Source of the DNA: Erysipelotrichaceae bacterium
GTDB taxonomy: Bacteria > Bacillota_I > Bacilli_A > RFN20 > CAG-826
Length of the DNA stretch: 64,000 nt
Reading direction: 5' to 3'
NCBI GenBank assembly: GCA_015058945.1
Contig: SVBF01000007.1
Coordinates: 66,230-130,229 of the forward strand
Of the stretch, positions 740 to 55,886 are shown one piece after another. Made by a program: the position numbers and the translations under genes. The notes under the pieces are model-generated. The model had not been told where the DNA came from and did no database searches. It saw nothing but the letters and a program-made list of their open reading frames with translations. Position 1 is the stretch's first letter. Each line of letters starts with the position of its first letter.

Positions 740-742
740 ACG

Positions 743-1471: not shown

Positions 1472-1485
1472 AGTGGCCTCCTTTC

Positions 1486-5918: not shown

Positions 5919-5973
5919 TCTAGGTACCTCCCACCAACATATAGGAGGCGAATTTCGATTTTTGCTCAAAAAA

Positions 5974-26154: not shown

Positions 26155-26186
26155 CCACAAAAAAAGGCGAGCTTTATTAGCCCGCC
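26155..26186 (-). terminator. Rho-independent terminator for the lipoprotein gene
   Basis: GGCGGGCTAATAAAGCTCGCC hairpin + T7 in the minus sense. Confidence 0.55.
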
Positions 26187-26204
26187 TAAATGATCTAAAA
26201 CGAA

Positions 26205-26708
26205 TTAGATGTTGTACCTACCGATCGCTTCGTCGAGGCGGGCGTTCAGGCCTCTGGTCCACTTGACCGCGTCACCGGTGGCGAAAGCGACATAAGCCTT
26301 CTTCGAGGTGTTGACGACGCCAGTCAAGACGCGGGAGAGGTATTCGCCGAGCTTGTCGGCCACGATCGCCTTGTTGACCGCGACGAGTTCATTGCCTTCG
26401 CCGTCCGAAGTGACGACGACAAAGGAATGGGTGCTCGTGCTCTCACCGGTGTAGGAGAAGGCGAGATTGGCGCCGATGTCGGCGGTTTGGGCGGCCTTCA
26501 CTTCGGTGGAGCCATAGGAGATCTTCACGTCGAGGGCTTCGGGGACGTCGAAATAGATTTTGCCCATGGCGACAAAGTCGATGTAGGTCGGTTGGGCGAT
26601 AGAGGATTCCGCTTGGGATGCTGGGGGAACGGAGCCGGATTGTTGTTCACCGCAAGAGGCGAGGAGCATGAGGCTCGCGATGGCGAATAAGGGAGTTTTA
26701 AGTTTCAT
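26205..26708 (-). CDS. Lipoprotein of unknown function
   Basis: Signal peptide with an LLASC lipobox. Confidence 0.65.
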   Translation of the reverse strand: MKLKTPLFAIASLMLLASCGEQQSGSVPPASQAESSIAQPTYIDFVAMGKIYFDVPEALDVKISYGSTEVKAAQTADIGANLAFSYTGESTSTHSFVVVTSDGEGNELVAVNKAIVADKLGEYLSRVLTGVVNTSKKAYVAFATGDAVKWTRGLNARLDEAIGRYNI

Positions 26709-26826
26709 GGTTTTGCTTCCTGTTGTTTGGATATTTTATCACTTATTGGCACACAGGCGTGAAGCTGGGCAAGAGGAATGGGTCCGTGACCGGCATATTT
26801 TGCGGAAGAATCCGCGCAAAAAGGGT

Positions 26827-28089
26827 TTATTTTGCGAAGGATACCGTGACTTTGGTGCCTTTGCCGACTTCGCTCTCGACCTTCATCTCGACCGACCCGA
26901 CCTGGCGCAGACGGTAACGGATGTTGTTGAGCCCGACGTGCTCGTTGGACTCGAAGTCGACTTTGTCCATGTCAAAGCCAACGCCATCGTCGATGACCTC
27001 GACGACATAACGGTCGCTTTCTTCATAAGAACGTAACGTCAGCGTCCCGCCCTCGACTTTCTTCAATATGCCGTGACGGACGGCGTTTTCCACTAAGGGC
27101 TGCACGCTAAGGGGCGGGACGTAGAAATCGGTCGCGGCGATGTCATAGACGACGCTAAGCCGCTCGCCGAAGCGGATCTTTTCCAAGGAGAGGAAGGCGC
27201 GGATATGGCTTAGCTCGTTGTCAAAGGCGATCATCCGGTTCTCCGTGAGGGAGGAAAGGTTCGCCCGGAGATATTCGGTGAAGTCGTCCAAAGCCGCCTG
27301 GGCTTTCTCGGGATCGATGGTGATCAAGGTCGAGATGGAGGAGAGGGAATTGTAGATGAAGTGTGGCTGAATCTGCGAAAGCATGACCCGGATTTGGGCG
27401 TCGCGCACCTTCTCCTCCTCACTCGCGAGGAGGATGTTGCGTTCCAAGTTGAGGAAAAAGAAGAGCACCTCGGTCGCCACGATGATGGAGAGATAGGCGA
27501 TCGCGTATCCTGGAAAGGCATCCTGGAAGGCGATGGCCACCACCGGCAAAAGACAATAGACCGCGAAGGCGATCTTCTCCCGGAGCTTCACCTTCTTGGA
27601 GAAGAGCGCATAGAAGAAGATGACCGCGAGCATCACGAACTGGTAACCCTGGGAGATTGGGAGCAACGGCAAACGGACATATTTTCCGCCTTGGGCCTCG
27701 AAGAACATCGGCACGAAGAGGTTCAGCACGTCGAGGAAGACGAACACCGCGAGCAAAGAGACGTTGAGGATGGCGAAGATCTTCGCCGTCTTCTTTTCCG
27801 GTTCCACATAACGGAGCATGTAGATGAAGAGGAAGAAAACCTCGAGGTTGTTCGCGATGTAAAAACCGGTATAGAAACCGCGGATCAACGCGTCGCTAGG
27901 CACATTGGCGCGCAAAAAGACGAAAGTGAAATAAGCGGCGAAATGGATGGCGGTGAAGGCGAGGAAGGCCAGCAAGGCGTTCTCGTCCTTACGCCGCTTT
28001 TTCTTCGTGGCGAGGTAGGCGATATGGACCAAAAAGATGACGATGCCGATCAGGCAGACGGTCGCGTTGAACATCGCGTTGTTTTCCAT
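26827..28089 (-). CDS. Sensor histidine kinase, LytS/YehU-type (polytopic N-terminus + His_kinase + HATPase)
   Basis: QIQPHFIYNSLSSISTL H-box and a C-terminal GHKL domain. It is the last gene of the peptide-export operon. Confidence 0.8.
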   Translation of the reverse strand: MENNAMFNATVCLIGIVIFLVHIAYLATKKKRRKDENALLAFLAFTAIHFAAYFTFVFLRANVPSDALIRGFYTGFYIANNLEVFFLFIYMLRYVEPEKKTAKIFAILNVSLLAVFVFLDVLNLFVPMFFEAQGGKYVRLPLLPISQGYQFVMLAVIFFYALFSKKVKLREKIAFAVYCLLPVVAIAFQDAFPGYAIAYLSIIVATEVLFFFLNLERNILLASEEEKVRDAQIRVMLSQIQPHFIYNSLSSISTLITIDPEKAQAALDDFTEYLRANLSSLTENRMIAFDNELSHIRAFLSLEKIRFGERLSVVYDIAATDFYVPPLSVQPLVENAVRHGILKKVEGGTLTLRSYEESDRYVVEVIDDGVGFDMDKVDFESNEHVGLNNIRYRLRQVGSVEMKVESEVGKGTKVTVSFAK

Positions 28090-28099: not shown

Positions 28100-28142
28100 T
28101 TTTACAACAAAGAAAAGGCCGCCGTGGCAATAACCGCGGCGG
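28100..28142 (-). terminator. Hairpin/terminator-like element between the rSAM and HK genes
   Basis: CCGCCGCGGTTATTGCCACGGCGG followed by CCTTTTCTTTGTT in the minus sense. It may attenuate rather than terminate. Confidence 0.35.
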
Positions 28143-28160: not shown

Positions 28161-29558
28161 TCAATCGATGTCGAGCGGGTTCTCGACGCGCCACTCCCCC
28201 ATCTTCGCGAGGACTTTCTCATACCACCCGTTCTCGAAGAAGAGGCATTTGGTGACGTCTTCGTGGAAATAATCTTGGTTTGGCGAATAGAGCAAGCCTA
28301 GTCCCGGGCAACCGCCGTTGCAGGCTTTGTAATAACGGCAGTTGCCGCATTTGTCGTTCTTCACGATTTGCTTTAACAAAGGCGCCGTCGCGAGGTTCAC
28401 GTAATCGCTATGTTTCAATAGTTCGCTTAACGGGGTCTTCAGGCAATTGCCCAAACTGATGCCCTTCTCGAGGAAATAGCCGGACATCTGAAGGCAAGGC
28501 ACCACTTCGCCGCTGCTCGAGACCGCGATCATGCCACGGGTCCCCTTGCACATGGGGATGCGAATGTTGAAGTCTTTCTTGTTGCAGGCGATCGGCACGA
28601 GTTCGTAGCTCTTTTGATTTGGATGCAGGCGCATGTATTGCCAAATGTCGATCTTCATCTTCAACCCGCTTTGGGCGTAAGCGGAGGCAAACTCGAGCAT
28701 GCGGTCGTAATATTCCTCGATCGATAGGCTCGACTGAGGCGAGTTCTTCTCCCACCGCGGCGCTTCGGTCGTGCGGATGATGCGCATCTCGTTGACGCCC
28801 ATCTGCTCGAGCAAAGCCGCCGTCTTCATCATGACGTCAACGTTTTTGCGGTTGACCTGGACCTGCGCCTTCACGCGGAAACCGTTATCTAAGCAGAGCT
28901 TTATGGCTTTGAGGGTCAATTCCTCGGCCTTGGGATGCTGACGGATCCAATTGTGGTAGCAGACGCCGTCATAGGAGATCTTGATCAAGGGACGGCAGCC
29001 GAGTTCCTTGAACACGTCGAGCATCTTTTGGTTCAAAAGCAGGCCGTTGGTGTTGAGCTCGAAGATCATCATGTCGCGTTCGTAGATGGCGCGGACGATG
29101 TCGAGGAAGCGCTTATGGACGAGGGGCTCCCCACCGGTCAATGTGAAGGCGTTGACGCCGACGTCTTTCGCCTGGTCCAAGATCGAAAGGATCTGCTCGA
29201 AACTTAGCTCCGAGTTCAGCGGCGCGTTGTCCTTCGCGTTAAAGCAATGGAGACAATTGAGGTTGCATTTGCCCGTCACCATGAGGTTCATGCGCGGGAA
29301 ATAAAGGTTGTCGTATTCCTTGAAACGGGACCATTCGCTCGGCTTTTGCCCCTTCTCACATTCCTCGATGAGGCCTTGGCGGAGCAAGTCCTCGAGGACG
29401 GGGCTAGGCTTTAAATCGGTCACGCCATCGCAACGAAGCAGGCATTCCATTTCCTCCGCGGAGACGCCAAAGGCGCAGTCCATCCCCTTACGGTAGACCG
29501 CGCGGTCGAGAAAGAGCCATTTCCTTAAGGCGATGTGGTCCTTCAGTCGGTAAAACAT
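28161..29558 (-). CDS. Radical SAM enzyme with C-terminal SPASM domain (peptide-maturase type)
   Basis: CNLNCLHC radical-SAM cluster motif near residue 98 and a C-terminal Cys-rich CGNCRYYKACNGGCPG. The first ~90 residues could be an RRE-like domain. Confidence 0.8.
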   Translation of the reverse strand: MFYRLKDHIALRKWLFLDRAVYRKGMDCAFGVSAEEMECLLRCDGVTDLKPSPVLEDLLRQGLIEECEKGQKPSEWSRFKEYDNLYFPRMNLMVTGKCNLNCLHCFNAKDNAPLNSELSFEQILSILDQAKDVGVNAFTLTGGEPLVHKRFLDIVRAIYERDMMIFELNTNGLLLNQKMLDVFKELGCRPLIKISYDGVCYHNWIRQHPKAEELTLKAIKLCLDNGFRVKAQVQVNRKNVDVMMKTAALLEQMGVNEMRIIRTTEAPRWEKNSPQSSLSIEEYYDRMLEFASAYAQSGLKMKIDIWQYMRLHPNQKSYELVPIACNKKDFNIRIPMCKGTRGMIAVSSSGEVVPCLQMSGYFLEKGISLGNCLKTPLSELLKHSDYVNLATAPLLKQIVKNDKCGNCRYYKACNGGCPGLGLLYSPNQDYFHEDVTKCLFFENGWYEKVLAKMGEWRVENPLDID

Positions 29559-29587: not shown

Positions 29588-30343
29588 CTATTGCCCGTCG
29601 AAGAACGCCCAATCGTATTGGGTCATGTATTCGCCGCGATACTGACGGATCGCGTCTTTGTTGCCCTTCTTGTATTCATAGGCGTCGCATTCCACCTTGG
29701 TCACGTCGATGAAGCATTCGGTGTAGCGCTTGACGAAGACGCCTTCCGCCCCCGCTTTGTTGAGAGTGTTTTGGATGTCGGCGATGAGGTTCCTCAAATA
29801 GGAGGGATGGTCCTCTTCCCATAAGACGGCGTTAAGTTCGTTGATGTGGATCGCCGAGCCCTCGCGGTCGACGAGGTAGGCAAAAGCCTCTTTCGATTTC
29901 TTGTAGGAGAAGCGCAAAGGTTCGCCGTCCCAGAAGGCCTCGAAATTGCCGAAGCACTTGATGCGCAGCTTCCGTTGCTTCGAGGAAATGGGATAACGGA
30001 GGTGGCTTAGTTCCTCCATGATCTTGGCCTTGCTCACCGGTTTGGTGACATAACCCGAGGCATGGATTTTATGGGCCTCGAGGGCGTATTGGTCATAGGC
30101 GGTGACGAAGATGACGTTGATCTCTGGGTTAACGAACTGCAGCCTTTTGGCGAGCTGGACGCCGTTAGTGCCAGGCATCTCGATGTCGAGGAATGCGAGG
30201 TCGAAAATCTGCTCCTTCGTGGCATCCATCGCTTCCTTGGAATTTGAAAAAGAGTGCGTTTTTGCGTCCGGAATGGCCTCTTTTACGGCTTTTTCGAGAC
30301 GTAGGAGCTGCAAGGGCTCGTCATCGACCAACATGATGTTCAT
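29588..30343 (-). CDS. Response regulator, REC domain + SARP/OmpR-type winged-helix with truncated BTAD
   Basis: N-terminal MLVDDEP...DLAFLDIEMPG receiver, then a C-terminal RIKCFGNFEAFWDGEPLRFSYKKSKEAFAYLV segment and WAFF. Confidence 0.75.
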   Translation of the reverse strand: MNIMLVDDEPLQLLRLEKAVKEAIPDAKTHSFSNSKEAMDATKEQIFDLAFLDIEMPGTNGVQLAKRLQFVNPEINVIFVTAYDQYALEAHKIHASGYVTKPVSKAKIMEELSHLRYPISSKQRKLRIKCFGNFEAFWDGEPLRFSYKKSKEAFAYLVDREGSAIHINELNAVLWEEDHPSYLRNLIADIQNTLNKAGAEGVFVKRYTECFIDVTKVECDAYEYKKGNKDAIRQYRGEYMTQYDWAFFDGQ

Positions 30344-30372: not shown

Positions 30373-32262
30373 TTAAAAACGCTTCTTGAGCACGAGCATG
30401 TTCTTGCCGTTGATGCGATCATAGGCGCATTCGGTCATGATGCTCTTGACGATATGGATGCCAAGTCCACCGACGTGGGCGAGGCTTTGCTCGGTGCCGA
30501 CGTCAGGGTTATCGACGTCGAGCTGATTGAACGGCTTGCCGTGGTCGATGACCGTGAGGACGAATTCGTTCTCGTCTTCGTTGAAGAGGAGGCGGAGGAA
30601 GACGTCGCCCGTCCCATCGGAGTCGGCATAACCATAGTTGATGATGTTGGACACGAGTTCGTCGCCGACGATGACGAGTTTGTTTTTGAAGTCGTCGGGG
30701 AAATGGTGTTCCTCGCCGAAGCCGCTAATCATGCCGAGGATCTGCGGGACGCTCTCCTTCGCCGCGGCGAAGCTCTGCTCCTTATAGGAATAGGAGCCGC
30801 CGCGGTATTTGAGGGTCAGATAAGTGATGTCGTCGCTTTGGGGCGCCCCAGCCACGAAGGCGTTGACGTCGTCTTTGATGGAACGGTGGAGTTCGACGAC
30901 GCTGCCATAGGGGCGGCGGTTCATCGTCTCAAGGAAGCGCTTCTCGCCATAGAAATCTCCGGCCCCGTTACGCGCCTCGGTGACGCCATCGGTATAAAGG
31001 GTGATGCTTTCGCCGGGCTTAAGGACGATGGTCTCGTCGCGGACGAAGACATCCTTGAAGCAGCCTAAGAGAAAACCGGAGTTGCAGGTGAGGTAATGAA
31101 AATCCTGGCTTAGGCCCACGATCGGGGGGTTATGGCCCGCATTAGCGAACTGCAACGTCCCATCGCGCTTATTGAGGATGGCGAGGAAGGCCGTGACGAA
31201 CATGCTGGATTTGTTGCCCTTGAAGATGGACGCGTTGATATCAGCGAGGATCTGCGAAGGGGTCTTGCCCGAAGTCGCCGCGTCGCGGAAGGAGGTGATG
31301 GTCTTCATCATGAACATGGCCGCGGGCACGCCTTTGCCGGAGACGTCGCCGATGAGGATCGCGACATGGTCGTCGTCGATATCGACATAGTCATAGAGGT
31401 CGCCGCCGACTTCCTTGGCCGCGCGTAGCTCCGCCACGATCTCGACGTCCTTGGAGGAGATGGTCTCGGAGGGCAACGTGTTCATCTGGATGTCCTTCGC
31501 GACCTCGAGTTCGGTCTTGCTCTTCTGGTATTCGCCGTTGACGCTGATCTCGCTCTCCATCAAGTCGTTCGTACGACGGTTGAGGAAGTACATCGAGAGG
31601 AAGAGCAACGTGACGAAAAGCGCCCTGCCGAGGTAATAGTTCGCGAAAATGTTGATGAAGCGGTTCTCCCCCACTTTCCCGAGGTCGACCAGATATTGCC
31701 ATCTGCCTTGGGCGGTATCGGGGTAGGCGTCGGGGAGGAGGCGGTTATAGATGAGCTGGGATTCCTTGTCAAGCTGACCGGAGAAGAGGTTCGCGTCGAA
31801 TTCGCCATAGAAAACGCCAAGGCCAAGGGCGATGAGCATCTCGATAAGGACCGCGATGAAGATCGACCGGCACACCTTGGGACTGTAATAATGGGCCGTT
31901 AACGCAATGCAAACCGCCCATCCGAGCACGGCGTGCTTGGGCATGATGACGTTCAAGACGCCGATCGCGAGGACGAAGAGGCCAAGCAGGAAGTATTTGT
32001 ACTTCGGATGCGCCAGGAATTTGGACTTTATCCAAAACATCGGCGAAACCAAGAAGAAGATGGTGATCGGAATGACGATAATCGTCATCCGGTAGGTGCT
32101 CTCGCCGACGGTGAAGAGCTTGAAGAGGTATCCGAAATAGACGAGGAAAAGCAAAATCGCGGTGAAAAGCGCCGCGAAGGACATGTGCCAGTTCGCGCTG
32201 CGCTCGTTTACGAGATATGCTTCGCGGCTCTCTTGTTCCGCCTTCATTGCTTCATTCCCCAA
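30373..32262 (-). CDS. Membrane-bound PP2C (SpoIIE-like) phosphatase fused to an RsbW/SpoIIAB-like GHKL serine-kinase domain
   Basis: About 8 TM helices, then PP2C motifs GDVSGKGVPAAMFMM and TDGVTEA, then a C-terminal ELVSNIINYG...DHGKPF...GGLGIHIV (N, G1, G2 boxes). Confidence 0.75.
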   Translation of the reverse strand: MGNEAMKAEQESREAYLVNERSANWHMSFAALFTAILLFLVYFGYLFKLFTVGESTYRMTIIVIPITIFFLVSPMFWIKSKFLAHPKYKYFLLGLFVLAIGVLNVIMPKHAVLGWAVCIALTAHYYSPKVCRSIFIAVLIEMLIALGLGVFYGEFDANLFSGQLDKESQLIYNRLLPDAYPDTAQGRWQYLVDLGKVGENRFINIFANYYLGRALFVTLLFLSMYFLNRRTNDLMESEISVNGEYQKSKTELEVAKDIQMNTLPSETISSKDVEIVAELRAAKEVGGDLYDYVDIDDDHVAILIGDVSGKGVPAAMFMMKTITSFRDAATSGKTPSQILADINASIFKGNKSSMFVTAFLAILNKRDGTLQFANAGHNPPIVGLSQDFHYLTCNSGFLLGCFKDVFVRDETIVLKPGESITLYTDGVTEARNGAGDFYGEKRFLETMNRRPYGSVVELHRSIKDDVNAFVAGAPQSDDITYLTLKYRGGSYSYKEQSFAAAKESVPQILGMISGFGEEHHFPDDFKNKLVIVGDELVSNIINYGYADSDGTGDVFLRLLFNEDENEFVLTVIDHGKPFNQLDVDNPDVGTEQSLAHVGGLGIHIVKSIMTECAYDRINGKNMLVLKKRF

Positions 32263-32268: not shown

Positions 32269-32562
32269 TTAGAGCTTCTCGATTTTCATCAGGTTCTGGA
32301 AGCCGACCATCTCGAAGATGTCGTAGACCCCAGAGGGGACGCGGACGAGGCGGGTATCGTCGTAACGCTGCTTGAGGCGCACGATGATGCGAAGTCCGGC
32401 GGAGGAGATGTAACGGAGCTCCGCCATGTCGACGACGATGGAGCTCGGCTCGGTCGATTTGAGGATCTCCTCGACCTCCTTCTCCACCTCCTCGGAGTTG
32501 AAAGAGTTGAGTTCGCCCTCCAAATAGAGGGTCAACACTTTGTTTTCGATGGTATGTTTCAT
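32269..32562 (-). CDS. STAS-domain anti-sigma-factor antagonist-like protein
   Basis: 97 aa with the LRYISSAGLRIIV STAS core and a conserved Ser. Confidence 0.75.
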   Translation of the reverse strand: MKHTIENKVLTLYLEGELNSFNSEEVEKEVEEILKSTEPSSIVVDMAELRYISSAGLRIIVRLKQRYDDTRLVRVPSGVYDIFEMVGFQNLMKIEKL

Positions 32563-32573: not shown

Positions 32574-34748
32574 TTATTTTGTGTCTAGCCTTTGCCGTTC
32601 GACGAGTTCGGCGAACCGGCCTTTTTTCGCTAATAGCGATTCATAGTCCCCGCTTTCGACCACGCGCCCGTCCTCGAGCATCAGGATGCGGTCGGCATGC
32701 TGGATGGTCGAGAGGCGATGGGCGATCACGATGCGGGTGCAGTTGAGCTTGTCGATCGCTTCGGAGATGCTCCGCTGCGTCTTGTTGTCGAGGGCGCTCG
32801 TGGCCTCGTCGAAGATGAGGATCTTCGGACGATGGACGATGGCCCGGGCGATCATGATGCGCTGCTTTTGCCCGCCCGAGATGCCGCCTTGGCCCTCGGA
32901 GATGACCGTCTTCATCTTCATCGGCATCGCGCGGATGTCGTTGGCGATGTCGGCGATTTCCGCCGCCTCCCACGCGTCTTTCTCGGTGAGGTTCGGGGCG
33001 GAGATGATGATGTTGGACAAGATGTCCGCATGGAAGAGGTTGCCCCCTTGCATGACGGTACCGATCTTGCGCCGCAACGAAGGCAAGTCGATGTCGTCCA
33101 TCGGAATGTCGTCGTAGAGGATGGTGCCAGAAGTCGGTTTCTCGAAGCCGAGAAGCAAACGCACGAAGGTCGATTTGCCGCACCCCGTCCTACCGACGAT
33201 GGCGACGTATTCGCCTTCGCGAATGTCTAACGACAGGTGGTCCAAAACATCCGGTCCGCCTTCATTATACTGGAAAGAAACATTGTCGAAACGGATATTT
33301 CCGTTCACGTGTTCCATGACGATTTTGCCTTGGATATTCTCGCTTTCGGCGGAGAGGATCGGTCGCGCGAGCTCAAATAACGGGGGCACCGTGAAGGAGA
33401 CCTCCACGATGCGGCCCACCGAGACGAAGGCGGCGGAGAGGATGCCATAGCTCGTCACGAAGGCCATGTAGTCGTCGACGGCGACGTTATATCTCGCGGC
33501 GAGGAAATAGATCGCCACGTTGCCGAGCAAAGTGATGAGCAAGGTGATCGCCGGGGCCAAGCGGATGATCAGCGGTGGGCTATAACGTGCCCTCGCGGCA
33601 CGATAATACACGCTCGCCCATTTGGCGAAGACGCGCTTCTCCGAGCCGGAGAGGCGGATCTTTTGGATGCCGTTGATCATCTCGTAGGTCACGCCGGACT
33701 CTTTGGAGGAGAGCTCGAGTTGTTTGGTCATGTGCCCCTTTCGCACGACGGAGACGATGACGGTGAACAAGGTCGAGGCGACCAGAATCAAAACGACGGG
33801 CAGGATCAACACGGGGGCAAAGCCCGCGAGCTGGAAGAGGTAGACCAAGGACATCACCGAGGAGATCAAGGCCGCGAAGATGCCGTTGACGATGGTGTTC
33901 GCAAGCAGTGGCACCGCGTTGAAGCGGGCGGTCATCTCGCCGGTGTTGTATTTCTTGAAGAAAGAGGGCGGTAGCGAAAACACGCGCATCATCGTCGCCT
34001 CCTGGATCGCCTTCTCGCGACGGATGGCGATATGCGAATTGACGAAGGTCTGCACCGCCTTGAGGAGCAATAAGCCGGTCGCGGTCGCGACGACGTAGAT
34101 CGAGATCGCGACGTATTGGACGATGTTTTTGTCCTGCACCACTTCGCCGGTCAAGATCTTGGTGAGGTAAGGCAAAAGCGCCCCGACCCCCACCACCGAT
34201 GCGGAGAGCACGCCATAGACGACCGTCTCCCAAAGGCGGATCGATTTGCGGATGTAACGGATGTATTCCTTTAACGACACCTTTTGGGTCGGCAGGGCGC
34301 GGTAGAAGCTATAGGCCTCCGCCTCGAGCTTATCGAAGATGCTTTCGGCGAGGCGCGTCTTCTTGCCCGTCTTGAAGTTGACGTAATAATAGCCCTTCTC
34401 GCCGCGAGGCAAGAGGACGACCGGGTTATGGCCCTCCTTGGTGAAGACGAGCAAAGGCGAAAGGTCGCCTTCTTTGATCGAGTCCTTGAGTTCGACCTTA
34501 TGGTATTGGATCTCATAGGGACGGAGAGCGTAATTGAACTTCTCCATCAGGGTGACGATGGAAGAGGGGATGTCGCCGAGCTGATGATGGTAGAAGGAAA
34601 GGACTTGGGCGACGGCTTGGTTCTCGCGCAGCGCTTTCTCGTCGAGCTGCCCGGAGGTATCCATTCCGGCGAGCGAACGGAAAGAATCCTCGAACGTCGC
34701 TTCGTCGAGTTTTCTGCGTTTGGCGATTTGTTCTTCGAACCAGCCCAT
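32574..34748 (-). CDS. NHLM-type bacteriocin-system ABC transporter, ATP-binding/permease subunit with non-peptidase N-terminal domain
   Basis: The N-terminal ~170 aa lack a catalytic Cys, then 6 TM, then an ABC ATPase (GRTGCGKST, LSGGQKQR, ILIFDEATS). Confidence 0.75.
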   Translation of the reverse strand: MGWFEEQIAKRRKLDEATFEDSFRSLAGMDTSGQLDEKALRENQAVAQVLSFYHHQLGDIPSSIVTLMEKFNYALRPYEIQYHKVELKDSIKEGDLSPLLVFTKEGHNPVVLLPRGEKGYYYVNFKTGKKTRLAESIFDKLEAEAYSFYRALPTQKVSLKEYIRYIRKSIRLWETVVYGVLSASVVGVGALLPYLTKILTGEVVQDKNIVQYVAISIYVVATATGLLLLKAVQTFVNSHIAIRREKAIQEATMMRVFSLPPSFFKKYNTGEMTARFNAVPLLANTIVNGIFAALISSVMSLVYLFQLAGFAPVLILPVVLILVASTLFTVIVSVVRKGHMTKQLELSSKESGVTYEMINGIQKIRLSGSEKRVFAKWASVYYRAARARYSPPLIIRLAPAITLLITLLGNVAIYFLAARYNVAVDDYMAFVTSYGILSAAFVSVGRIVEVSFTVPPLFELARPILSAESENIQGKIVMEHVNGNIRFDNVSFQYNEGGPDVLDHLSLDIREGEYVAIVGRTGCGKSTFVRLLLGFEKPTSGTILYDDIPMDDIDLPSLRRKIGTVMQGGNLFHADILSNIIISAPNLTEKDAWEAAEIADIANDIRAMPMKMKTVISEGQGGISGGQKQRIMIARAIVHRPKILIFDEATSALDNKTQRSISEAIDKLNCTRIVIAHRLSTIQHADRILMLEDGRVVESGDYESLLAKKGRFAELVERQRLDTK

Positions 34749-34761: not shown

Positions 34762-36930
34762 CTACTCGTTGGTCACGAGCTCATAATACGGTCCTTTGGC
34801 CGCCATGAGCTCCTCGTGGGTCCCCTGCTCCGCGATCTCGCCGCCCTCGAGCATGACGATCAAATCCGCGTCGCGGATGGTCGAGAGACGGTGGGCGATG
34901 ACGATGGTCGTGATGCCCCTGGCCTTGACGGCGCGGACGACGTCGTATTCCGTCTTCGCGTCGAGGGCGCTCGTGGCTTCGTCGAGGATGATGATGCTCG
35001 GGTCGGCCGCGAGGGAACGGGCGATCTCCAAACGCTGTTTCTCGCCGCCGGAGAAGTTGCGCCCGCCTTCGAGCACCGCCGCGTTATACCCGCCTTCGCG
35101 CTGCATGATCTGGCGATGAATCTGGGCGTCGTTGCAGGCCATGATGATCTCGTAGTCCTCAATGGACTCATCCCACATGCGGATGTTGTTCGCGACCGTG
35201 TCCTCATAGAGGGTGATGTCCTGATCGACGACGGCGATGGAAGAGGTGAAGATCTCGTGGTCGATCTCCTCGATTCGCTTGCCATCAAAGATGATTTCGC
35301 CAGACCACGGCGAATAAAGGCCAGAGATCAGTTTGGAGAGCGTCGACTTGCCGCTGCCGGTCGAGCCGACGATCGCCACCTTTTGACCCTGCTTGATCTC
35401 GAGGTTGAAGTGGCGCAACACGGGTTCGTCCAAGGGCGAGTAGCCGAAGGTGACGTCGCGCAGGACGAGGTTGCCCTTGACCTTGGCGACGTTATCCATG
35501 GCCACCGAACGGGTGACGTTGGCGTCGAGGGGGTATTCGATGACGTCGTCGACGCGCTCCATCTGGGTGCGCATCTCCTGCAGGGTCTGACCGCTGTTGA
35601 TTAAGGTCATGGCCGGGGACATGAATAAACTCAAAATCGCCTGGAAGGACAAAATGGAACCGACGGTGAACTGGCCCTTGATGACGTAATAGATGCCGAG
35701 GACCAACACCGAATAGTTCGCGATAAGCGTGAGGAAGGCGGGCAAGATGCCGAGGGTTTGGTTCACCCGCGACATGCGGATCTTGCCTTTGGTGACGTTT
35801 TCCTCGACCTCCGCCCAGGTGTCGTAATAGGCCGCCTCGGCGCCGTTGCTCTTGATGGTCTCGATCATCTCGATGCCTTTGGAGGTCATGGCGGAAAGCT
35901 TGGCGGCATCGCGGGATTGGACGCGGGAGATGTTGACCCTGATCTTGGAGATGCGGTTGGAGATGAAGCCGTTGAGGACAATCGTCACCACGCCAAGAAG
36001 GGCGAGCGTCGCGCTTTTTTGGATCATGATGGTCAGGTAGACGACGATCATGATGGCGTTGAAGAAAAGCGGCGCGAAGACGTTCACGAGCGTTTCGGCG
36101 ATCGAGGCGTTCTCGCTTTGGCGCGACTGCAGATCGCCAACCATTCTCTGGGAGAAGAAATTGATGGGGAGGCGGAGGATGCGCCACATGTAGGATGTCG
36201 AGCCGATGAGGTCGAGTTTGCCGCTGATCTTATACGAATAGAGGGCCTGCACCCCCGTCACGACGACCTGCAGCAACCCGATGAGCCCGAACAAGGTCAA
36301 AAAGGGATAGAGCCAATCCGGGTTACGCCCGGCGAGCAGATAGTCGACGAAAACCTGCTCCATCGCCGGGGAGATGATGGTGAAGAGGTAGACGACGACC
36401 GAGGTGATGGAAAAGAACGCCATCAGAGGCACCGCGCCTTTGAGGCGGCGCTTAGCAAAGCCGATGATGGACTTCTTCTTGCCGCCGGGGACGAATTCCT
36501 CGGTGGGGACGATCTCCAAATAGACGCCGGTGAAGTACTCGTCGAAGGTCGCGACGTCGAGTTTCATCTGCCCACGCGCGGGGTCGTTGATGTACACCTT
36601 GTTGCCGCGGAAGCCGGAGACGACGACGAAATGGCCGCCGTTCCAGTGGACGATCGCGGGGAACTTGCCCCGCTGCTTGAGCTTCAACGCGTTAAGGGCG
36701 TAGCCTTTCGTGGCGAAGCCGTACTTACGGGCCGCTTGGAGGATGTTCTTCGCGCTCGAGCCGTTACGGGAGACGCCGCAATCGACGCGTAGTTGCTCTA
36801 ACGGCACCCATTTGCCGTAATAGGCCATGACCATGGCCAAAGAAGCCGCGCCGCATTCGAGGGCCTCGAGCTGCATGATGATGGGGACGTTGGCGACCCC
36901 TTTGGTTTTGGGCGTCTTGACCTTTCTCAT
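34762..36930 (-). CDS. ABC transporter with N-terminal C39 double-glycine peptidase domain (peptidase/permease/ATPase)
   Basis: QLEALECGAASLAMVMAYYG and HFVVV C39 motifs with TM and ABC domains. ATG at 36930 forms an ATGA overlap with the upstream gene stop; the track ORF start 36984 lies inside the upstream ORF. Confidence 0.8.
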   Translation of the reverse strand: MRKVKTPKTKGVANVPIIMQLEALECGAASLAMVMAYYGKWVPLEQLRVDCGVSRNGSSAKNILQAARKYGFATKGYALNALKLKQRGKFPAIVHWNGGHFVVVSGFRGNKVYINDPARGQMKLDVATFDEYFTGVYLEIVPTEEFVPGGKKKSIIGFAKRRLKGAVPLMAFFSITSVVVYLFTIISPAMEQVFVDYLLAGRNPDWLYPFLTLFGLIGLLQVVVTGVQALYSYKISGKLDLIGSTSYMWRILRLPINFFSQRMVGDLQSRQSENASIAETLVNVFAPLFFNAIMIVVYLTIMIQKSATLALLGVVTIVLNGFISNRISKIRVNISRVQSRDAAKLSAMTSKGIEMIETIKSNGAEAAYYDTWAEVEENVTKGKIRMSRVNQTLGILPAFLTLIANYSVLVLGIYYVIKGQFTVGSILSFQAILSLFMSPAMTLINSGQTLQEMRTQMERVDDVIEYPLDANVTRSVAMDNVAKVKGNLVLRDVTFGYSPLDEPVLRHFNLEIKQGQKVAIVGSTGSGKSTLSKLISGLYSPWSGEIIFDGKRIEEIDHEIFTSSIAVVDQDITLYEDTVANNIRMWDESIEDYEIIMACNDAQIHRQIMQREGGYNAAVLEGGRNFSGGEKQRLEIARSLAADPSIIILDEATSALDAKTEYDVVRAVKARGITTIVIAHRLSTIRDADLIVMLEGGEIAEQGTHEELMAAKGPYYELVTNE

Positions 36931-37319
36931 TGCGCGTTTCCGAACAGGAATTCGATCGGTCGGACCTCGCGATAGATGACGCAAAAGGGGTATTCGCCGT
37001 CCGCGACGTCAAACACCGACGCCATCACGCTTGACCCTTCGACGAAAGTGATCGAGCCTTCCTTGCCTGAGATGATGACCTTTTGCCCCACCGCGATCTT
37101 GGGACGGTCGTCCACTTGGACCAGTAACGTCGCCTCCCCATCGAGGACCTCGGCCGTGCCGAATGCCCGAAGCGGGAGGATGGTGAGCGTCGACCAGAGG
37201 AAAAGAGAAAGCAGCGAAACCGCCACCGAGGCCAGAATGACCCAGGTGACCGGCGAGGTGCGCTGGAGGTGACGGTTGAGCTCCTCCGGGCTCGAAATGT
37301 TCGCTTCGCTCTTCTTCAT
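36927..37319 (-). CDS. Mini HlyD-like secretion/membrane-fusion protein (N-terminal TM + beta domain)
   Basis: 130 aa; TM helix then VQVDDRPKIAVGQKVIIS...GSITFVEG, resembling an HlyD C-terminal barrel. It is the first gene of the operon. Confidence 0.45.
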   Translation of the reverse strand: MKKSEANISSPEELNRHLQRTSPVTWVILASVAVSLLSLFLWSTLTILPLRAFGTAEVLDGEATLLVQVDDRPKIAVGQKVIISGKEGSITFVEGSSVMASVFDVADGEYPFCVIYREVRPIEFLFGNAQ

Positions 37320-38027: not shown

Positions 38028-38061
38028 AAAGGGAAAACAAAACCGCCATAAAGGACGGTTT
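38028..38061 (-). terminator. Weak terminator after the precursor peptide gene
   Basis: AAACCGTCCTTTATGGCGGTTT hairpin + TGTTTTCCC in the minus sense. Confidence 0.4.
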
Positions 38062-38077: not shown

Positions 38078-38299
38078 TCAGGAGTCGATTTTGCGCTGCC
38101 CCAACGGCGTATCCTTGGGTTGGTCTTTGTCGTCGTCGCCGCCGCATCCGCCGCCGGAGACCGCGTCGAGCTGCTCGTCGCTAAGTTCTACGCCCTCGTC
38201 CTTGGCAAGCTGGAGGAGGTCGAAGGTGTTGTCGCATTCGGCGACCTTCTCGATCTGGTCCGCGGTGAGGCCTTTGAGCAATTCCTGTTTGACGTTCAT
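38078..38299 (-). CDS. Nif11-type leader peptide precursor with double-glycine cleavage site and 23-aa acidic single-Cys core
   Basis: MNVKQELLKGLTADQIEKVAECDNTFDLLQLAKDEGVELSDEQLDAVSGG | GCGGDDDKDQPKDTPLGQRKIDS. A GGAGGAA RBS lies 7 nt upstream. The track ORF extends upstream of the real start. Confidence 0.75.
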   Translation of the reverse strand: MNVKQELLKGLTADQIEKVAECDNTFDLLQLAKDEGVELSDEQLDAVSGGGCGGDDDKDQPKDTPLGQRKIDS

Positions 38300-38447
38300 G
38301 GTGTTTCCTCCTTCGTCTTGCCCATATCTTAGAAGGGCGTTTGTCACAGACTTGCCACACATTGGAAAAACTTTGGAAGTCCCGCCCAACATCGATACAT
38401 ATCCCGGGCGTATTATTGGACTTTACATTTGTATAGCCCTTATCCTT

Positions 38448-41042: not shown

Positions 41043-42482
41043 TCATTCCTTGCCTTGATATTTGAGGCTTAGCAGGGTGATATCGTCGCTTTGGGGCGCC
41101 TCGAGGACGAAGGAGGCGATGTCCGCCTTCACCGTGGCGTGGAGGTGTTCCATGGAGTCGAACTGTTTGCCGGTGAGGCAGGAGAGGAAGCGCTTCTCGC
41201 CATAGAAGTCCCCCGACGCGTTACGCGCCTCAGTAACGCCGTCGGTATAGAGGGTGAGGCTCTCGCCCGGCTTAAGGACGATCTCCTCATCGGTCACGAT
41301 CGCGTTATCGAAGCAGCCAAGGAGCAAACCCGAGGAGCATTTGAGGTAATCGTATTTGCCCCCTTGCCCAAGGATCGGGGGATTATGGCCCGCATTAGCG
41401 AACTTCAAGGTCCCGTCGCGCTTATCGAGGATCGCGAGGAAAGCCGTCACGAACATCGCGGCCTTATTGCCTTTGACGATGGAGGAATTGATGTCCTTAA
41501 GGATCTGCGAAGGGGTCTTGCCCGCGGTCGCGAAATCGCGGAAGGAGGTGATGGTCTTCATCATGAACATCGCGGCCGGGATCCCCTTGCCGGAGACGTC
41601 GCCGATGAGGACCGCGACGTGGTCTTTGTCGATATCGACGTAGTCGTAGAGGTCGCCGCCGACTTCCTTCGCGGCGTTAAGCTCGCCGATGATCTCCACC
41701 CCATCGGAGAGGACCGCCTTGGTGGGCAAGGTGTTGATCTGGATGTCCCTGGCGACGTTAAGCTCGGTCTTGGCCTTCTCTTGCTCGTCGTGAACCTTGA
41801 TCTCGTCGTCGAGGAGGCGATAGGTGCGCTGATTGAGGATGTTGGACACCATGAAGAACAGCGTCACGATGGCCGCGCGGGGGAAGAAATAGAAAATCAG
41901 CACTTTGACGTAACGGTTATCCCCGTGGGCGATGCGGTCCTGAAGCAACGCCACGCGCTCCTCCAAGGTCTCGACCGTGCCGATCGTGCCATCGGATAAG
42001 ATCACTCCGCCGCCAAAGAGGTTCTCGTCGAACTCGCCGAAGAACATGCCGAGGTAGATGCAGCAAAGCATCGAGAGGATGCTCACCGCGTAGACGACCC
42101 TGCCGATCGTGGGGTTGTAATAATGGTTCGCGATCAAAATGACGAACGGCCAGAAGAGCAGGCTATGCTTCGGCAAGAAGACGTTGAGGGCGAAGATGAC
42201 CGCCATCAAGGAAAAGAGGATGAAATATTTGTACCCCGGCCTGCGGATCATGTCGGTCTTTAAGAAGAAAAGCGGCAGGAACATCAACACGGCCACGATC
42301 GGGAAGAGGATGTTCACCATCACGAAGAACTGCTCGGGGATGACGAAGACGCGGACGACGTAAAGGAGCCAAATGACCAGGGACAAAATGCCGGCCGCGC
42401 CATTGACGTAGCTCATGTACTTGTTCGCGTCGGCCTCGTGGTTGTAATAGGCCTGCTGGTATTCCTGTTTCCTTTTCGGCAT
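41043..42482 (-). CDS. Membrane-bound PP2C (SpoIIE-like) phosphatase, paralog of 30373..32262 without the kinase domain
   Basis: GDVSGKGIPAAMFMMKTITSFRDFATAGKTPSQIL... is nearly identical in its motifs to the fused paralog. Confidence 0.75.
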   Translation of the reverse strand: MPKRKQEYQQAYYNHEADANKYMSYVNGAAGILSLVIWLLYVVRVFVIPEQFFVMVNILFPIVAVLMFLPLFFLKTDMIRRPGYKYFILFSLMAVIFALNVFLPKHSLLFWPFVILIANHYYNPTIGRVVYAVSILSMLCCIYLGMFFGEFDENLFGGGVILSDGTIGTVETLEERVALLQDRIAHGDNRYVKVLIFYFFPRAAIVTLFFMVSNILNQRTYRLLDDEIKVHDEQEKAKTELNVARDIQINTLPTKAVLSDGVEIIGELNAAKEVGGDLYDYVDIDKDHVAVLIGDVSGKGIPAAMFMMKTITSFRDFATAGKTPSQILKDINSSIVKGNKAAMFVTAFLAILDKRDGTLKFANAGHNPPILGQGGKYDYLKCSSGLLLGCFDNAIVTDEEIVLKPGESLTLYTDGVTEARNASGDFYGEKRFLSCLTGKQFDSMEHLHATVKADIASFVLEAPQSDDITLLSLKYQGKE

Positions 42483-42564: not shown

Positions 42565-43665
42565 TCAGTCGATTTGAGGCTCAGGTTCCGGCTCTTCCTC
42601 GACGGAGTCGTTCTTGAAGTTGGCCGCGTATTCCTCATCGTATACGTCGATGGGCTGACCGTTCTCGTCGTACTCCTGGACGAGGTCCTGGGCGACGCTA
42701 TTCTGGAACTGTTCGTTGCCTACGGGCGGATGCTGCTCGTCATAGTCCTCGATCCCGGCCTCGCGCTCGGCGCGGCGTTCCCTGTTGCCGTTCATGATGG
42801 TCTCGTAGACCTGTTCGCCCTTACGCTGCTGCTGGCTGGTTAACAGGAGGTTATAGCTGAAGGCGGCGCGTTCTTTCCTCGTGCCGCTGAGGCGGTTGAT
42901 GTCTTCTTGGCTCGGCAGGCCATCCTCCGGATCCCAACTAGGGAAGACGTGGCGGAGGTATTCGGTCGCGGCCTTGTCCAAGGCGTCCAAGTCGCCATGG
43001 AGGACGTGGTTTGGTTTATTGAAGGCCTCATAGACCTGCCTGAGGTTCGCGTAGGCCGTGGAATACTTGCCAAACATCCCGGCGACGAGGCCCGGCTTGG
43101 TGTTCTCGAAGGCTTTGTCGAGCTGCGCCTTACCGCGGTAATTCGCTTTGAGGCGGGCCATGAAGTCGCGCCCGGTGGCGTCGACTTCATAGGCGTCGAT
43201 ACGTTGGGACATGGATCCGTCGAAATCGCCGGAGAGGACGGCGGACATGACCTGAAGGTCATTGAGACGTTTCTGCCCTTCCGGGGAATTGTCGTTTCCT
43301 CCCGCCTCGATCTGGATGAGGCGCGTGGTTTCGCCTTGGAGGTATTGCACCGGCTCGAGCATGAACTGACGGTATGGCGCGTCTTCTTCGTCACTGAGGT
43401 TCGGGTCGACGGATTCGTTAGGAATGACGATGCTCTTCTTTCGCCTTAAGGTGAGGGATGCGTCGGCGATTTTCATCTTCGCGATGTGGACGGCCTGCTC
43501 GAAGGGGACGTCACGGTTTTGCCCCGCCCCATAGGCGAGCAAGTAACGGGTGGTGAAGGCCATCTTGTCCTCGAGGTTCTCCAAGGAATCCATGCTGCTC
43601 ATGTAATCCGCCATGGAGATGTACTTCACTTTTCTGAGTATTTGTTCGCTTAGGATCTTCGGCAT
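42565..43665 (-). CDS. Hypothetical cytoplasmic protein, family A (acidic C-terminus)
   Basis: 366 aa, N-terminus MPKILSEQILRKVKYISMAD. It is paralogous to the next gene. Confidence 0.6.
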   Translation of the reverse strand: MPKILSEQILRKVKYISMADYMSSMDSLENLEDKMAFTTRYLLAYGAGQNRDVPFEQAVHIAKMKIADASLTLRRKKSIVIPNESVDPNLSDEEDAPYRQFMLEPVQYLQGETTRLIQIEAGGNDNSPEGQKRLNDLQVMSAVLSGDFDGSMSQRIDAYEVDATGRDFMARLKANYRGKAQLDKAFENTKPGLVAGMFGKYSTAYANLRQVYEAFNKPNHVLHGDLDALDKAATEYLRHVFPSWDPEDGLPSQEDINRLSGTRKERAAFSYNLLLTSQQQRKGEQVYETIMNGNRERRAEREAGIEDYDEQHPPVGNEQFQNSVAQDLVQEYDENGQPIDVYDEEYAANFKNDSVEEEPEPEPQID

Positions 43666-43801
43666 CGGTCTTTCCTCCTGCTTGCGGTTATTCTAGCATT
43701 GGCGCCGTCACAAAGGTGTCACACGGCGAAAATGGCGCGTTTTCCTTAGAAAAACAAAGGAAAACCCTCGCTTGGGGCAAGGGTGTTTCCATGTGTTTGG
43801 C

Positions 43802-44890: not shown

Positions 44891-44960
44891 GGTTTTATCC
44901 TCCTTTTCCCTGAGGGACGCCCATATTATTCACCCCCGACTGTCACAACCGTGCCACAAA

Positions 44961-54012: not shown

Positions 54013-54263
54013 ATTGGTTCATTCCTTTCCGATTCGACCTAAAGAATCCTAAGGTGAAATAATTCTACACTTTATCGAAGATAAATTAAGTCTCGAACCT
54101 AATCTTTATCCAGCAGCGCACCAAACACCGTTTTGGTGTGCGCTAGAGAAATTTTAGTTGTCTTTGAGTCGTCCCGAAATTTTCAAAAAAATAAAAGAGG
54201 ACCTCGACCACGTCGAGGAAATCCGCAAAAATGGAGCGCGATGCGGGATTGGAATCGCGTTCC

Positions 54264-54395: not shown

Positions 54396-54405
54396 GGAGA
54401 CGATT

Positions 54406-55872: not shown

Positions 55873-55886
55873 GGAAAGAGGCCGAA

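Follow-up and report, generated by a model that had tools for sequence, protein, structure and literature searches.

Organization of the locus

The window, a 64,000-nucleotide stretch of an Erysipelotrichaceae contig, encodes a radical SAM (rSAM) enzyme whose gene lies between those of a response regulator (RR) and a histidine kinase (HK). All three belong to a predicted nine-gene operon that, in the order of transcription, contains the following genes and one intergenic element:

36927..37319, minus strand: short membrane protein of 130 aa resembling the HlyD N-terminus (NHLM_micro_HlyD, E=4e-5), first gene of the operon
34762..36984, minus strand: ABC exporter bearing a double-glycine peptidase (C39) domain (TIGR03796, 836 bits; cut-off 853)
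32574..34748, minus strand: second ABC exporter subunit (TIGR03797, 622 bits; cut-off 709)
32269..32562, minus strand: single-domain STAS protein of the anti-sigma-antagonist type (profile matches)
30373..32262, minus strand: fusion of a PP2C (SpoIIE) phosphatase with an RsbW-like HATPase_c_2 kinase (Pfam and NCBIfam matches)
29588..30343, minus strand: RR with a REC domain (E=1e-23) and a SARP-like winged-helix output domain
28161..29558, minus strand: predicted rSAM/SPASM peptide maturase of 465 aa, with an 88-aa N-terminal alpha/beta domain, the rSAM core and a seven-Cys SPASM domain
28105..28142, minus strand: hairpin (stem 28119-28142) and U-rich tail between the rSAM and HK genes
26827..28089, minus strand: HK in which some 6-7 membrane-spanning helices are followed by the domains His_kinase (PF06580) and HATPase_c (Pfam)
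26205..26708, minus strand: 167-aa protein of unassigned function with a lipoprotein-like N-terminus, final gene before a terminator at 26165-26187

The sandwiched position of the rSAM gene, first noted from the sequence alone, was confirmed. The tight spacing also holds, though each gap is one nucleotide shorter than the 30 and 72 nt originally given: 29 nt separate the RR and rSAM genes and 71 nt the rSAM and HK genes. As had been noted, the latter gap contains only a weak hairpin, with eight pairs and one mismatch, followed by CCUUUUCUUUGUUG. It was not among the hits of the consensus terminator scan, and the z-score of the 86-nt fold is -1.8; its stem is unchanged in a 95%-identical relative (locus L063), and it may act as a partial terminator. 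An identical rSAM protein is encoded by 19 metagenome contigs belonging to separate assemblies of ENA and JGI, and the RR-rSAM-HK order was seen at all three places examined, which represent 16 of these contigs. Because the order recurs on separately assembled contigs, it is no assembly artefact.

TIGR03796 and TIGR03797 are the best-scoring families of the exporter genes, with both scores lying just under the equivalog cut-offs, and the true start of the C39-bearing protein is likely the ATG at 36930, as indicated by the gene calls of L063. The HlyD-like protein likewise scores best against the HlyD family of this export system (TIGR03794) but matches only the first 50 positions of its profile; its gene is kept beside the exporter in about 40 loci. 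The phosphatase-kinase fusion is the predicted partner-switch partner of the STAS protein. Weak homologues of the 167-aa protein occur beside the HK in two other loci (L007 and L020).

Precursor peptides and the range of substrates

Upstream of the operon the window contains one recognizable precursor gene:

38078..38299, minus strand: class A precursor, consisting of a Nif11-like leader with VSGG at its end, followed by the core GCGGDDDKDQPKDTPLGQRKIDS
38040..38061, minus strand: terminator-like hairpin directly after the precursor gene (terminator scan)

The precursor gene has an AGGAGG ribosome-binding site 7 nt upstream and lies 8.5 kb upstream of the rSAM gene. The sequence-only reading had taken it for the sole recognizable precursor, and a six-frame scan of the 64 kb with a leader-HMM indeed returned this single match (E=5e-27). 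Its suggestion of further substrates of less than 60 aa found no support: the leader-HMM recovered none in the window, and from 26 to 38 kb no space between genes exceeds 176 nt or holds a credible small ORF. The Nif11 resemblance of the leader is that of a helical leader with a GG site. Against the Nif11 leader model TIGR03798, with a cut-off of 32.3 bits, the window precursor gave no match at E<=0.01, while one relative of class C reached 29.6 bits and one of class B 18 bits.

The proposal that the enzyme is a RiPP-type rSAM tied to the upstream precursor gains support from the relatives: in 22 related loci the rSAM orthologue is preceded, at a distance of 6-90 nt, by the gene for a homologous short precursor, and in three loci the precursor gene follows it. 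Cys-containing precursors also adjoin the rSAM gene in a more distant clade at 45% identity. These substrates range from 13-residue charged peptides to folded zinc-ribbon mini-proteins and share only a Cys near the cleavage site; located 1-5 residues after the GG in 80 out of 80 precursors, it is the sole invariant feature of the core. The position three residues after this Cys is enriched in D, E, S or T. The window core contains the sequence C-G-G-D-D, potentially compatible with a Cys-X2-3-Asp link. When SPASM enzymes act on peptides with Cys, they mostly form thioethers, for example in the sactipeptide and ranthipeptide families, and the product here is probably a Cys thioether as well.

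Each cluster has a single class A peptide, as a rule encoded beside the rSAM, with the zinc-ribbon and mini-protein cores occurring in variable arrays. The class A peptide is found in 15 of 17 loci with the RR gene against 5 of 18 without it (p=5e-4, with 20-kb loci counted regardless of shared ancestry).

A candidate operator for the response regulator

The output domain of the RR gives profile matches to the SARP EmbR (E=6e-6, residues 5-117 against 7-123) and to AfsR (E=1.5e-3). Only about 30 residues follow the winged helix, and at E<=1 Pfam returned neither a BTAD nor any other domain for the last 132 residues. The sites bound by SARP activators are direct repeats of heptamers with an 11-bp periodicity, located just upstream of the -10 box. 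Three sites of comparable form were found in the window; they are given here with the genes that they precede and a nearby phosphatase gene:

38326..38359, minus strand: operator-promoter of the precursor gene, TGTGGCA-agtc-TGTGACA, 10-nt spacer, -10 box TAAGAT
44925..44958, minus strand: second operator-promoter, TGTGGCA-cggt-TGTGACA, 10 nt, AATAAT
43802..44890, minus strand: U362, 362 aa, function unassigned, predicted to be transcribed from the second operator
43690..43723, minus strand: third operator-promoter, TGTGACA-cctt-TGTGACG, 10 nt, TAGAAT
42565..43665, minus strand: U366, a paralogue of U362 (31% identity), predicted to be transcribed from the third operator
41043..42482, minus strand: membrane-bound PP2C (SpoIIE) phosphatase of 479 aa, 60-72% identical to a cluster-linked PP2C of most related loci

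The consensus of the candidate operator is TGTGRCR-N4-TGTGRCR followed, after 10 nt, by a -10 box. It occurs three times in the window as against none in 100 shuffles, in front of the precursor and of the two unassigned genes at 42.6-44.9 kb. U362 and U366 have no Pfam, NCBIfam or PDB match and belong to a family of just 24 unnamed protein clusters. The same element stands before precursors in about 25 related loci, preceding both class A and class B genes. Across 1.04 Mb we counted 52 exact sites, all except one on the strand of the cluster; 29 lie 30-60 nt upstream of precursors, and 45 have a TAnnnT exactly 10 nt downstream (background 1.8%). The operator accompanies the RR gene in 17 of 18 loci and is found in 9 of 30 loci devoid of it (p=1e-5, again counting loci regardless of shared ancestry). 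The element has a fixed geometry and is the likely operator of the RR. With a SARP-like RR in the cluster and the operator before the precursor, regulator and precursor are therefore probably linked, and the peptide cluster is probably under RR control.

No operator was detected upstream of the rSAM operon of the window, even with two mismatches permitted, or within 10 kb in L063, and the 45%-identity clade has neither exact sites nor an obvious variant. A single TGTGGCA half-site beside the promoter of a deoxyribosyltransferase gene was judged not meaningful.

A proposed pathway and its possible closure into a signalling loop

The explanation that we favor, with a probability of roughly 0.65, is that the rSAM is the modifying enzyme of a conserved RiPP cluster under REC-SARP control and that its place between the RR and HK genes came about by reshuffling. 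Speaking against this explanation are the rSAM family scores below cut-off, the want of an RRE match in the N-terminal domain, the operator-less rSAM operon of the window, L063 with neither operator nor precursor within 10 kb, and the many related clusters devoid of HK or RR in the available sequence. The substrate would be a Nif11-type precursor with a double-glycine cleavage site and an N-proximal core Cys, which the enzyme most likely converts to an intramolecular thioether. Cleavage and export would fall to the NHLP/Nif11-type ABC pair, one member of which carries the C39 protease, together with the short HlyD-like protein. On the regulatory side, the multi-pass membrane HK would phosphorylate the REC and SARP-like regulator, which might then bind the two TGTGRCR heptamers, 11 bp apart and 10 nt upstream of the -10 box. 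Such binding would turn on the precursor gene and, in the window genome, also the genes for the two proteins of about 360 aa (U362 and U366). In most relatives the rSAM gene follows directly behind the precursor and would thus come under the operator of the latter. In the window lineage the reshuffle would have moved it between the RR and HK genes, into the nine-gene operon with its own, operator-less promoter.

A possible though doubtful extension of this explanation, which does not contradict it, is that the class A peptide is the HK's own signal: once modified by the rSAM and exported, it would be sensed by the HK and, via the REC-SARP protein, induce its own gene and the effector genes in a quorum-sensing loop. 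The presence of a C39 exporter, HK and RR in one cluster is consistent with such a loop, as are the single class A peptide beside the rSAM amid otherwise variable arrays, its co-occurrence with the RR, and the operators before class A and class B genes. Further, in seven of eight distant HK orthologues the sensor half is less conserved (49-55% identity) than the catalytic half (60-68%); however, membrane domains commonly diverge faster in any case. Against the loop, the peptides are oddly hydrophilic and charged for Gram-positive pheromones, and many clusters have a class A peptide or the operator but no HK or RR in the available sequence.

Gene order in related clusters

The canonical order across 62 loci is HK, RR, a HipA-like gene, precursor, rSAM, HlyD-like, two ABC exporters, STAS and PP2C/kinase. 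The window departs from it in several respects: tblastn found no copy of the HipA-like gene, which is present in 27 loci; the precursor is displaced; and genes for a nucleoside deoxyribosyltransferase and for PreT/PreA interrupt the cluster. Moreover, L063 has no precursor within 10 kb by a six-frame leader-HMM search. One might read this as a cluster decaying in the window lineage, with the sandwich as a remnant of little function, but we consider such decay improbable. No ORF is disrupted, and between the two lineages the rSAM shows 95% identity and no loss of a catalytic Cys. The window still has three perfect operator-promoters, and in the precursor the ribosome-binding site, the leader, the GG site, the Cys and the RKIDS motif at the C-terminus all persist.

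The two-component system does belong to the rSAM cluster, as the sequence-only reading had supposed, with RR orthologues (59-71% identity) encoded upstream of the rSAM in 16 loci. The significance that it attached to the position inside the pair is not borne out. Among the 62 related genome loci plus L063, the RR-rSAM-HK order recurs only in L063. HK orthologues (53-62% identity) are encoded directly beside the RR in seven other loci, where the rSAM gene lies 1.3-2 kb downstream, and further permutations include RR-precursor-rSAM and an HK placed after the PP2C gene. The order in the window is one of at least four permutations, found in one shallow lineage, and is therefore apparently meaningless in itself; as the genes were reshuffled in this lineage, the sandwich is a by-product of rearrangement rather than a mechanism. 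That the position is functional, with the rSAM acting for instance on the HK or RR or with the arrangement fixing their stoichiometry, is most unlikely: the gaps are tight and the order is stable across the 19 contigs (16 of them through the three places shown) and in the 95% relative, but these permutations speak against it, and even the RR-rSAM spacer is unconserved, measuring 29 nt in the window against 8 nt in L063. The analysis gave no sign that the enzyme itself takes part in regulation.

Architecture and family placement of the rSAM enzyme

Pfam recognizes in the protein a Radical_SAM domain (PF04055, E=2e-20) and a SPASM domain (PF13186, E=3e-7). In the ORF translation, CNLNCLHC supplies C98, C102 and C105 of the CX3CX2C motif, all invariant in 115 homologues. 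The seven-Cys pattern of SPASM domains consists of CX9-15GX4C, then CX2CX5CX3C, then a final C. It is present here as C337-X12-G-X4-C355, as C404, C407, C413 and C417 in the stretch CGNCRYYKACNGGCPG (C404-C417), and as C438, with all seven again invariant in the 115 homologues. An AF2 model of the protein (pLDDT 93) has SuiB as its nearest PDB fold (E=2e-17 over about 490 aligned columns), followed by SkfB (E=1e-16) and, in third place, anSME, and SkfB is the top PDB sequence-profile match (61.7 bits). Residues 1-88, modeled in isolation (pLDDT 92), form three strands, a helix, a strand, a helix and a strand. No RRE match was obtained for this N-terminal domain by Pfam (E<=10, 23 N-terminal domains), by the PDB profile search or by Foldseek on the isolated model (best E=5).

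We placed the enzyme by curated HMM scores and the PDB ranking. It falls below the cut-off of every curated rSAM family model among the 86 NCBIfam families matched. The scores are 74 bits for StsB (NF045574, cut-off 625), 68.5 bits for the PapB-type ranthipeptide maturases (NF047865, cut-off 340), 66.9 bits for the anaerobic sulfatase maturases (TIGR03942, cut-off 349) and 56 bits for SkfB (TIGR04403, cut-off 300). The model TIGR03973, by whose rule ranthipeptides were identified in the Hungate1000 survey, is absent from the best 25 of those 86 families. The highest score, 114 bits against a cut-off of 500, goes to the non-RiPP enzyme AhbD. Non-RiPP kinship together with a missing RRE had been named beforehand as evidence against a RiPP role, and the outcome is split: no RRE match was found, while the first rank of AhbD comes with a score far under its cut-off.

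It is worth asking if the gene product is instead a SPASM protein unrelated to RiPPs, for instance a maturase of the anaerobic sulfatase, cofactor or heme type, encoded near a peptide cluster by chance. AhbD, AhbC and NirJ as its top-scoring models, the third-ranked anSME fold and the want of a recognizable RRE would agree with this, yet we regard it as highly improbable. The three scores lie 4-6 fold under the family cut-offs, the clusters are without sulfatase or heme genes, and Cys-containing precursors are direct neighbors of the rSAM both in 22 close loci and within the clade at 45% identity. The C/S-x-P/A-x-R motif does not follow the conserved Cys in any of the 80 precursors. Assignment as an anSME was rejected on the bit score and the missing substrate motif, the fold likeness being real but generic. 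The RiPP assignment rests on genomic context rather than homology. The best reading of the enzyme is that it matures double-glycine precursors of the Nif11 type.

Comparison with known systems

SuiB/StrB, the enzymes of streptide, and other RaS-RiPP maturases resemble the window rSAM in having three [4Fe-4S]-type Cys motifs contributed by the rSAM core and the seven-Cys SPASM domain, and in SuiB the RRE sits where the window enzyme has its extra N-terminal domain. In both kinds of system peptide production is tied to a signalling regulator. However, sequence identity to SuiB is just 13-14%, the regulator of streptide-type systems is Rgg/SHP in place of an HK and REC-SARP protein, their conserved substrate residues are Lys and Trp rather than a single Cys, and the Nif11-like leader with its GG site sets the window-type precursors apart. 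The thioether maturases SkfB, CteB (SCIFF) and PapB share with the window cluster the use of Cys-containing substrates. Sactipeptide and ranthipeptide cores have repeated CX3D motifs or six Cys, whereas the short core of the window type has one, and against the PapB, StsB and SkfB models the window enzyme reaches only 56-74 bits where 300-625 are called for.

The export machinery resembles the NHLP/Nif11 systems (TIGR03794/03796/03797) in its tandem pair of ABC proteins, of which the leading one bears a C39 domain, in the HlyD-related protein, and in the helical Nif11-like leader ending in GG. It differs in its sub-cut-off exporter scores (836/853 and 622/709), in the HlyD-like protein of merely 130 aa, and in the modifying enzyme, an rSAM as opposed to LanM or a cyclodehydratase. 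As with the SARPs EmbR, AfsR and ActII-ORF4, the operator consists of a pair of heptamers that repeat every 11 bp, and a short, constant distance separates it from the -10 box. The window RR, in contrast, has its output domain fused to REC, comes from a Firmicute host, is devoid of a Pfam BTAD and is associated with a 10-nt spacer to the -10 box.

The overall logic recalls the ComCDE and BlpCHR systems of streptococci: a GG-leader peptide, a C39 ABC exporter, a membrane HK and an RR, with direct-repeat operators before the peptide and effector genes. Com and Blp combine an HPK10 kinase with a LytTR regulator, whereas the window cluster has a PF06580 (LytS/YehU-type) HK and a SARP-like RR; its peptide is presumably rSAM-modified, and a STAS/PP2C-kinase partner-switch module is added.

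Distribution and implications

The first homologue search with the rSAM already returned over 2,000 clusters of proteins grouped at 90% identity. The gene was located in 62 species-level genomes, mostly of rumen Bacilli and Lachnospiraceae, and the hosts of the cluster are rumen and gut Bacilli, Lachnospiraceae and related Clostridia. Full-text literature searches gave no description of the rSAM family or of the operator, and we found no curated model for the family. The sandwich itself is ordinary, but it is a pointer to a large unnamed family. This family unites features that are usually apart, namely an rSAM/SPASM maturase, NHLP/Nif11-type export and a SARP-like RR with a sharp operator, to which it adds the STAS/PP2C-kinase partner switch and a wide range of substrates. 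The operator offers a simple handle for regulon searches in metagenomes and for building reporters, and the single-Cys core of 23 residues is an easy substrate for chemistry.

We tentatively raise the possibility that these clusters constitute an undescribed signalling system of rumen and gut Firmicutes, in which an rSAM-modified class A autoinducer, NHLP-type C39 export, a PF06580 kinase, a REC-SARP protein and TGTGRCR promoters act together and all cargoes are tagged at a Cys. If so, the autoinducer would carry an N-proximal Cys crosslink, and the promoters would drive the peptide gene together with those for zinc-ribbon mini-proteins, beta-rich secreted domains of 60-80 aa and the two proteins of about 360 aa. 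One rSAM would then tag the cleavage-site Cys of every cargo, amounting to a general N-terminal modification of exported mini-proteins. Should the peptide be a signal, bacteria of an economically important microbiome would be communicating with one another in a new way.

The radical-SAM gene and its genomic neighborhood

Every gene from 38.3 to 26.2 kb lies on the minus strand. Most belong to a compact nine-gene operon (most gaps <30 nt; 71 nt at a hairpin) that encodes, in order, an HlyD-like protein (130 aa), an ABC protein with a C39 protease, a second ABC protein (ABC2), a STAS protein, a PP2C-HATPase_c_2 fusion, a response regulator (RR), the radical-SAM/SPASM enzyme (rSAM), a histidine kinase (HK) and, 118 nt past the latter, a lipoprotein-like 167-aa protein; a strong terminator at 26165-26187 closes it. 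Scores of the ABC proteins against the NHLP/Nif11 bacteriocin exporter are slightly below the equivalog cut-offs (836/853 and 622/709).

Features of the system
44941-44958, minus: operator site before the 362-aa ORF (U362)
43706-43723, minus: operator site before its 366-aa paralogue (U366)
41043-42482, minus: membrane PP2C (SpoIIE), 479 aa, without kinase domain; next gene past U366
38342-38359, minus: operator site before the precursor
38078-38299, minus: precursor, 73 aa; own operator-promoter before it, terminator-like hairpin after it
37496-37969, minus: nucleoside 2-deoxyribosyltransferase, between precursor and exporter operon; own -10 box and hairpin
29588-30343, minus: RR, 251 aa, upstream of rSAM
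28161-29558, minus: rSAM, 465 aa; CNLNCLHC (C98/C102/C105) and CGNCRYYKACNGGCPG
26827-28089, minus: HK, PF06580-type, 420 aa, downstream of rSAM

The sequence-only reading had placed the rSAM gene between those of the RR and HK, and this is borne out, with spacers of 29 and 71 nt respectively. The identical protein is found on 19 contigs from separate assemblies, and the same order recurs in all three places shown, which represent 16 of the 19; hence, the arrangement is real. The rSAM-HK gap contains a hairpin (8 pairs, one mismatch) with a U-rich tail after it. Its stem is kept in the relative with a 95% identical rSAM (L063), its stability is moderate (z=-1.8), and a consensus terminator scan did not pick it out.

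The rSAM homologues form >2,000 protein clusters, of which the best 120 are 464-468 aa long and 72-95% identical. A genome scan yielded 62 related loci, mostly in rumen MAGs with Bacilli or Erysipelotrichaceae labels (61-77% rSAM identity), along with some Lachnospiraceae (61-65%) and a clade at 44-47% from Coproplasma, Oscillospiraceae and other Clostridia. When mapped for synteny, the loci reveal a canonical order: HK, RR, a 397-aa HipA_C-like protein, precursor, rSAM, HlyD-like, ABC1, ABC2, STAS (sometimes duplicated) and PP2C/kinase. The HK directly adjoins the RR in seven loci; in L001 it comes after the PP2C gene, and L025 and L027 show the order RR-precursor-rSAM. Among the loci compared, RR-rSAM-HK is restricted to the window and L063, and even between these the RR-rSAM spacer varies (29 versus 8 nt); the sandwich is thus a recent permutation specific to this lineage. 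Of the earlier interpretation, it stands that the enzyme is the maturase of the cluster and that the two-component system is part of the same system, while the enzyme's location between the RR and HK has no demonstrable meaning.

The HipA-like gene, whose domain match is weak (E=0.014), is conserved between RR and precursor in L022 (8544-9737) and 26 other loci, often with an operator in front. It is found in neither the window nor L063, and has been lost in their lineage.

Two further observations concern individual loci. L023 (JAFUHJ010000089.1), a complete bacterial-type cluster with a 70% identical rSAM, sits in a MAG that bears the label Candidatus Methanomethylophilaceae archaeon; this probably reflects misbinning and not an archaeal version of the cluster. 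L059 and L062 (Eubacteriales and Lachnospiraceae MAGs) have three tandem radical-SAM genes with 26-41% identity to the query.

An unnamed SPASM family and its precursors

Pfam matches in the protein are Radical_SAM (E=2e-20), Fer4_12 and SPASM; as no NCBIfam model reached its cut-off, the family is unnamed. Across 115 homologues ten cysteines never vary: the rSAM motif contains three, the SPASM domain the other seven. A possible eighth ligand, C325, is kept in only 68 of the 115, so that one auxiliary cluster could have an open coordination site. An AlphaFold2 model built from the homologue alignment (pLDDT 93) best matches the PDB folds of SuiB (2e-17), SkfB (1e-16), anSME (3e-14), PqqE, TigE and ChlB. 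SkfB, a Cys-to-C-alpha thioether maturase, is the nearest solved protein by sequence profile (61.7 bits). Residues 1-88 are confidently predicted to form a conserved domain, in which R12, Y22 and C43-D44-G45 show little or no variation; it occupies the position of the RRE of SuiB, and sequence and fold comparison with known RREs gave no match.

Using tblastn and ORF extension we recovered 80 precursors, all of which combine a helical Nif11-like leader, terminated by a double glycine, with a Cys 1-5 residues beyond. Their cores sort into three classes:

Class A: highly charged cores of 13-26 aa with one Cys, most ending in [RK][RK][IFL][DE][SDN]; a single copy in each cluster, typically 6-90 nt upstream of rSAM
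Class B: ~45 aa, zinc-ribbon pattern CPxCG...CxxCG; tandem arrays
Class C: 60-80 aa, beta-rich, N-proximal Cys often the sole Cys; 45%-identity clade

The window peptide belongs to class A, with the core GCGGDDDKDQPKDTPLGQRKIDS. The suspicion that the window harbors unrecognised substrates was not sustained: a leader HMM scan of the 64 kb revealed no further precursor, and there are no hidden substrates here. As the Cys after the double-glycine is the sole feature common to all substrates, this N-proximal residue is the likely modification site. Position 3 after it is often D/E/S/T in the precursor set, which would be compatible with a small thioether ring, and we infer thioether chemistry for the enzyme.

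Arrays of 3-5 Nif11-leader genes with ~45-aa zinc-ribbon-like cores occur in L004 (488-2109), L012 (6564-7826) and L043 (1341-2769), many of the genes preceded by their own operator copy. L045, L048, L051, L052 and L055, which belong to the 45%-identity clade, have precursors 125-145 aa long, with beta-rich core domains of 60-80 aa that frequently contain a PKYxVGD motif; in many of these precursors, the Cys directly beyond the GG is the only one.

An operator element and a SARP-like response regulator

In the window and about 20 loci, class A precursors are preceded by a shared, conserved element, TGTG[G/A]C[A/G]-N4-TGTG[G/A]C[A/G], followed after 10 bases by a TAnnAT -10 box. The window has three exact sites versus none in 100 shuffles. 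Across 1.04 Mb (loci plus window) there are 52, of which 51 share the strand of the cluster; behind the 52 sites lie 29 class A/B precursors, seven HipA-like, two HlyD-like and one STAS gene, U362 and U366, with no recognised downstream gene at the remaining 11. TAnnnT stands exactly 10 nt past the operator at 45 of the 52 (background 1.8%). L027 (9707-9735) has a triple rather than double TGTGGCA heptamer, at 11-bp spacing, upstream of its class A precursor. The spacer between the HK and 167-aa genes (26709-26826, minus) contains a small hairpin (GCGG..CCGC) and a half-site, TGTGCCA, ahead of a TAAAAT box; as a lone heptamer this is unlikely to be a site.

The C-terminal domain of the RR has no match in a Pfam search; when used as a profile, it hits two SARP proteins, EmbR (E=6e-6) and AfsR (E=1.5e-3). 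SARPs are known to recognise direct repeats of heptamers, phased at 11 bp and adjoining a -10 box, exactly the geometry of the cluster operator. In counts uncorrected for phylogeny, the operator is found in 17/18 loci with an RR gene versus 9/30 without (p=1e-5), and class A peptides likewise co-occur with the RR (15/17 versus 5/18, p=5e-4). Taken together, these observations suggest that the RR binds the operator and activates its promoters. The peptide itself might act as an autoinducer.

In the window, no operator precedes the rSAM-containing operon, which seemingly has a plain TATAAT promoter near 37350; in canonical loci, by contrast, rSAM lies behind the operator-controlled precursor.

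Extent of the system

U362 and U366 (42565-44958, minus) are 31% identical, have acidic C-terminal tails and each follow a perfect operator-promoter copy; their unnamed family comprises only 24 protein clusters. The adjacent 479-aa PP2C shares 60-72% identity with the PP2C linked to the cluster in most other loci, more than the window's in-cluster PP2C-kinase fusion does (52%). As this second PP2C resembles the cluster-linked ones and L033 has U362/U366 homologues on the flanks of its cluster, the system covers roughly 26-45 kb, broken by PreT/PreA-like genes and the deoxyribosyltransferase gene; no related locus compared carries the latter, which hence looks like an unrelated insertion. The G+C content is 0.47-0.53 at 1-6000 and 52000-64000 versus 0.55-0.60 in the window centre, and the GC skew switches sign near 46 kb.

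The family is an uncharacterised variant of the rSAM/SPASM RiPP systems, set apart by its REC-SARP regulator and operator; the principal new result concerns regulation.
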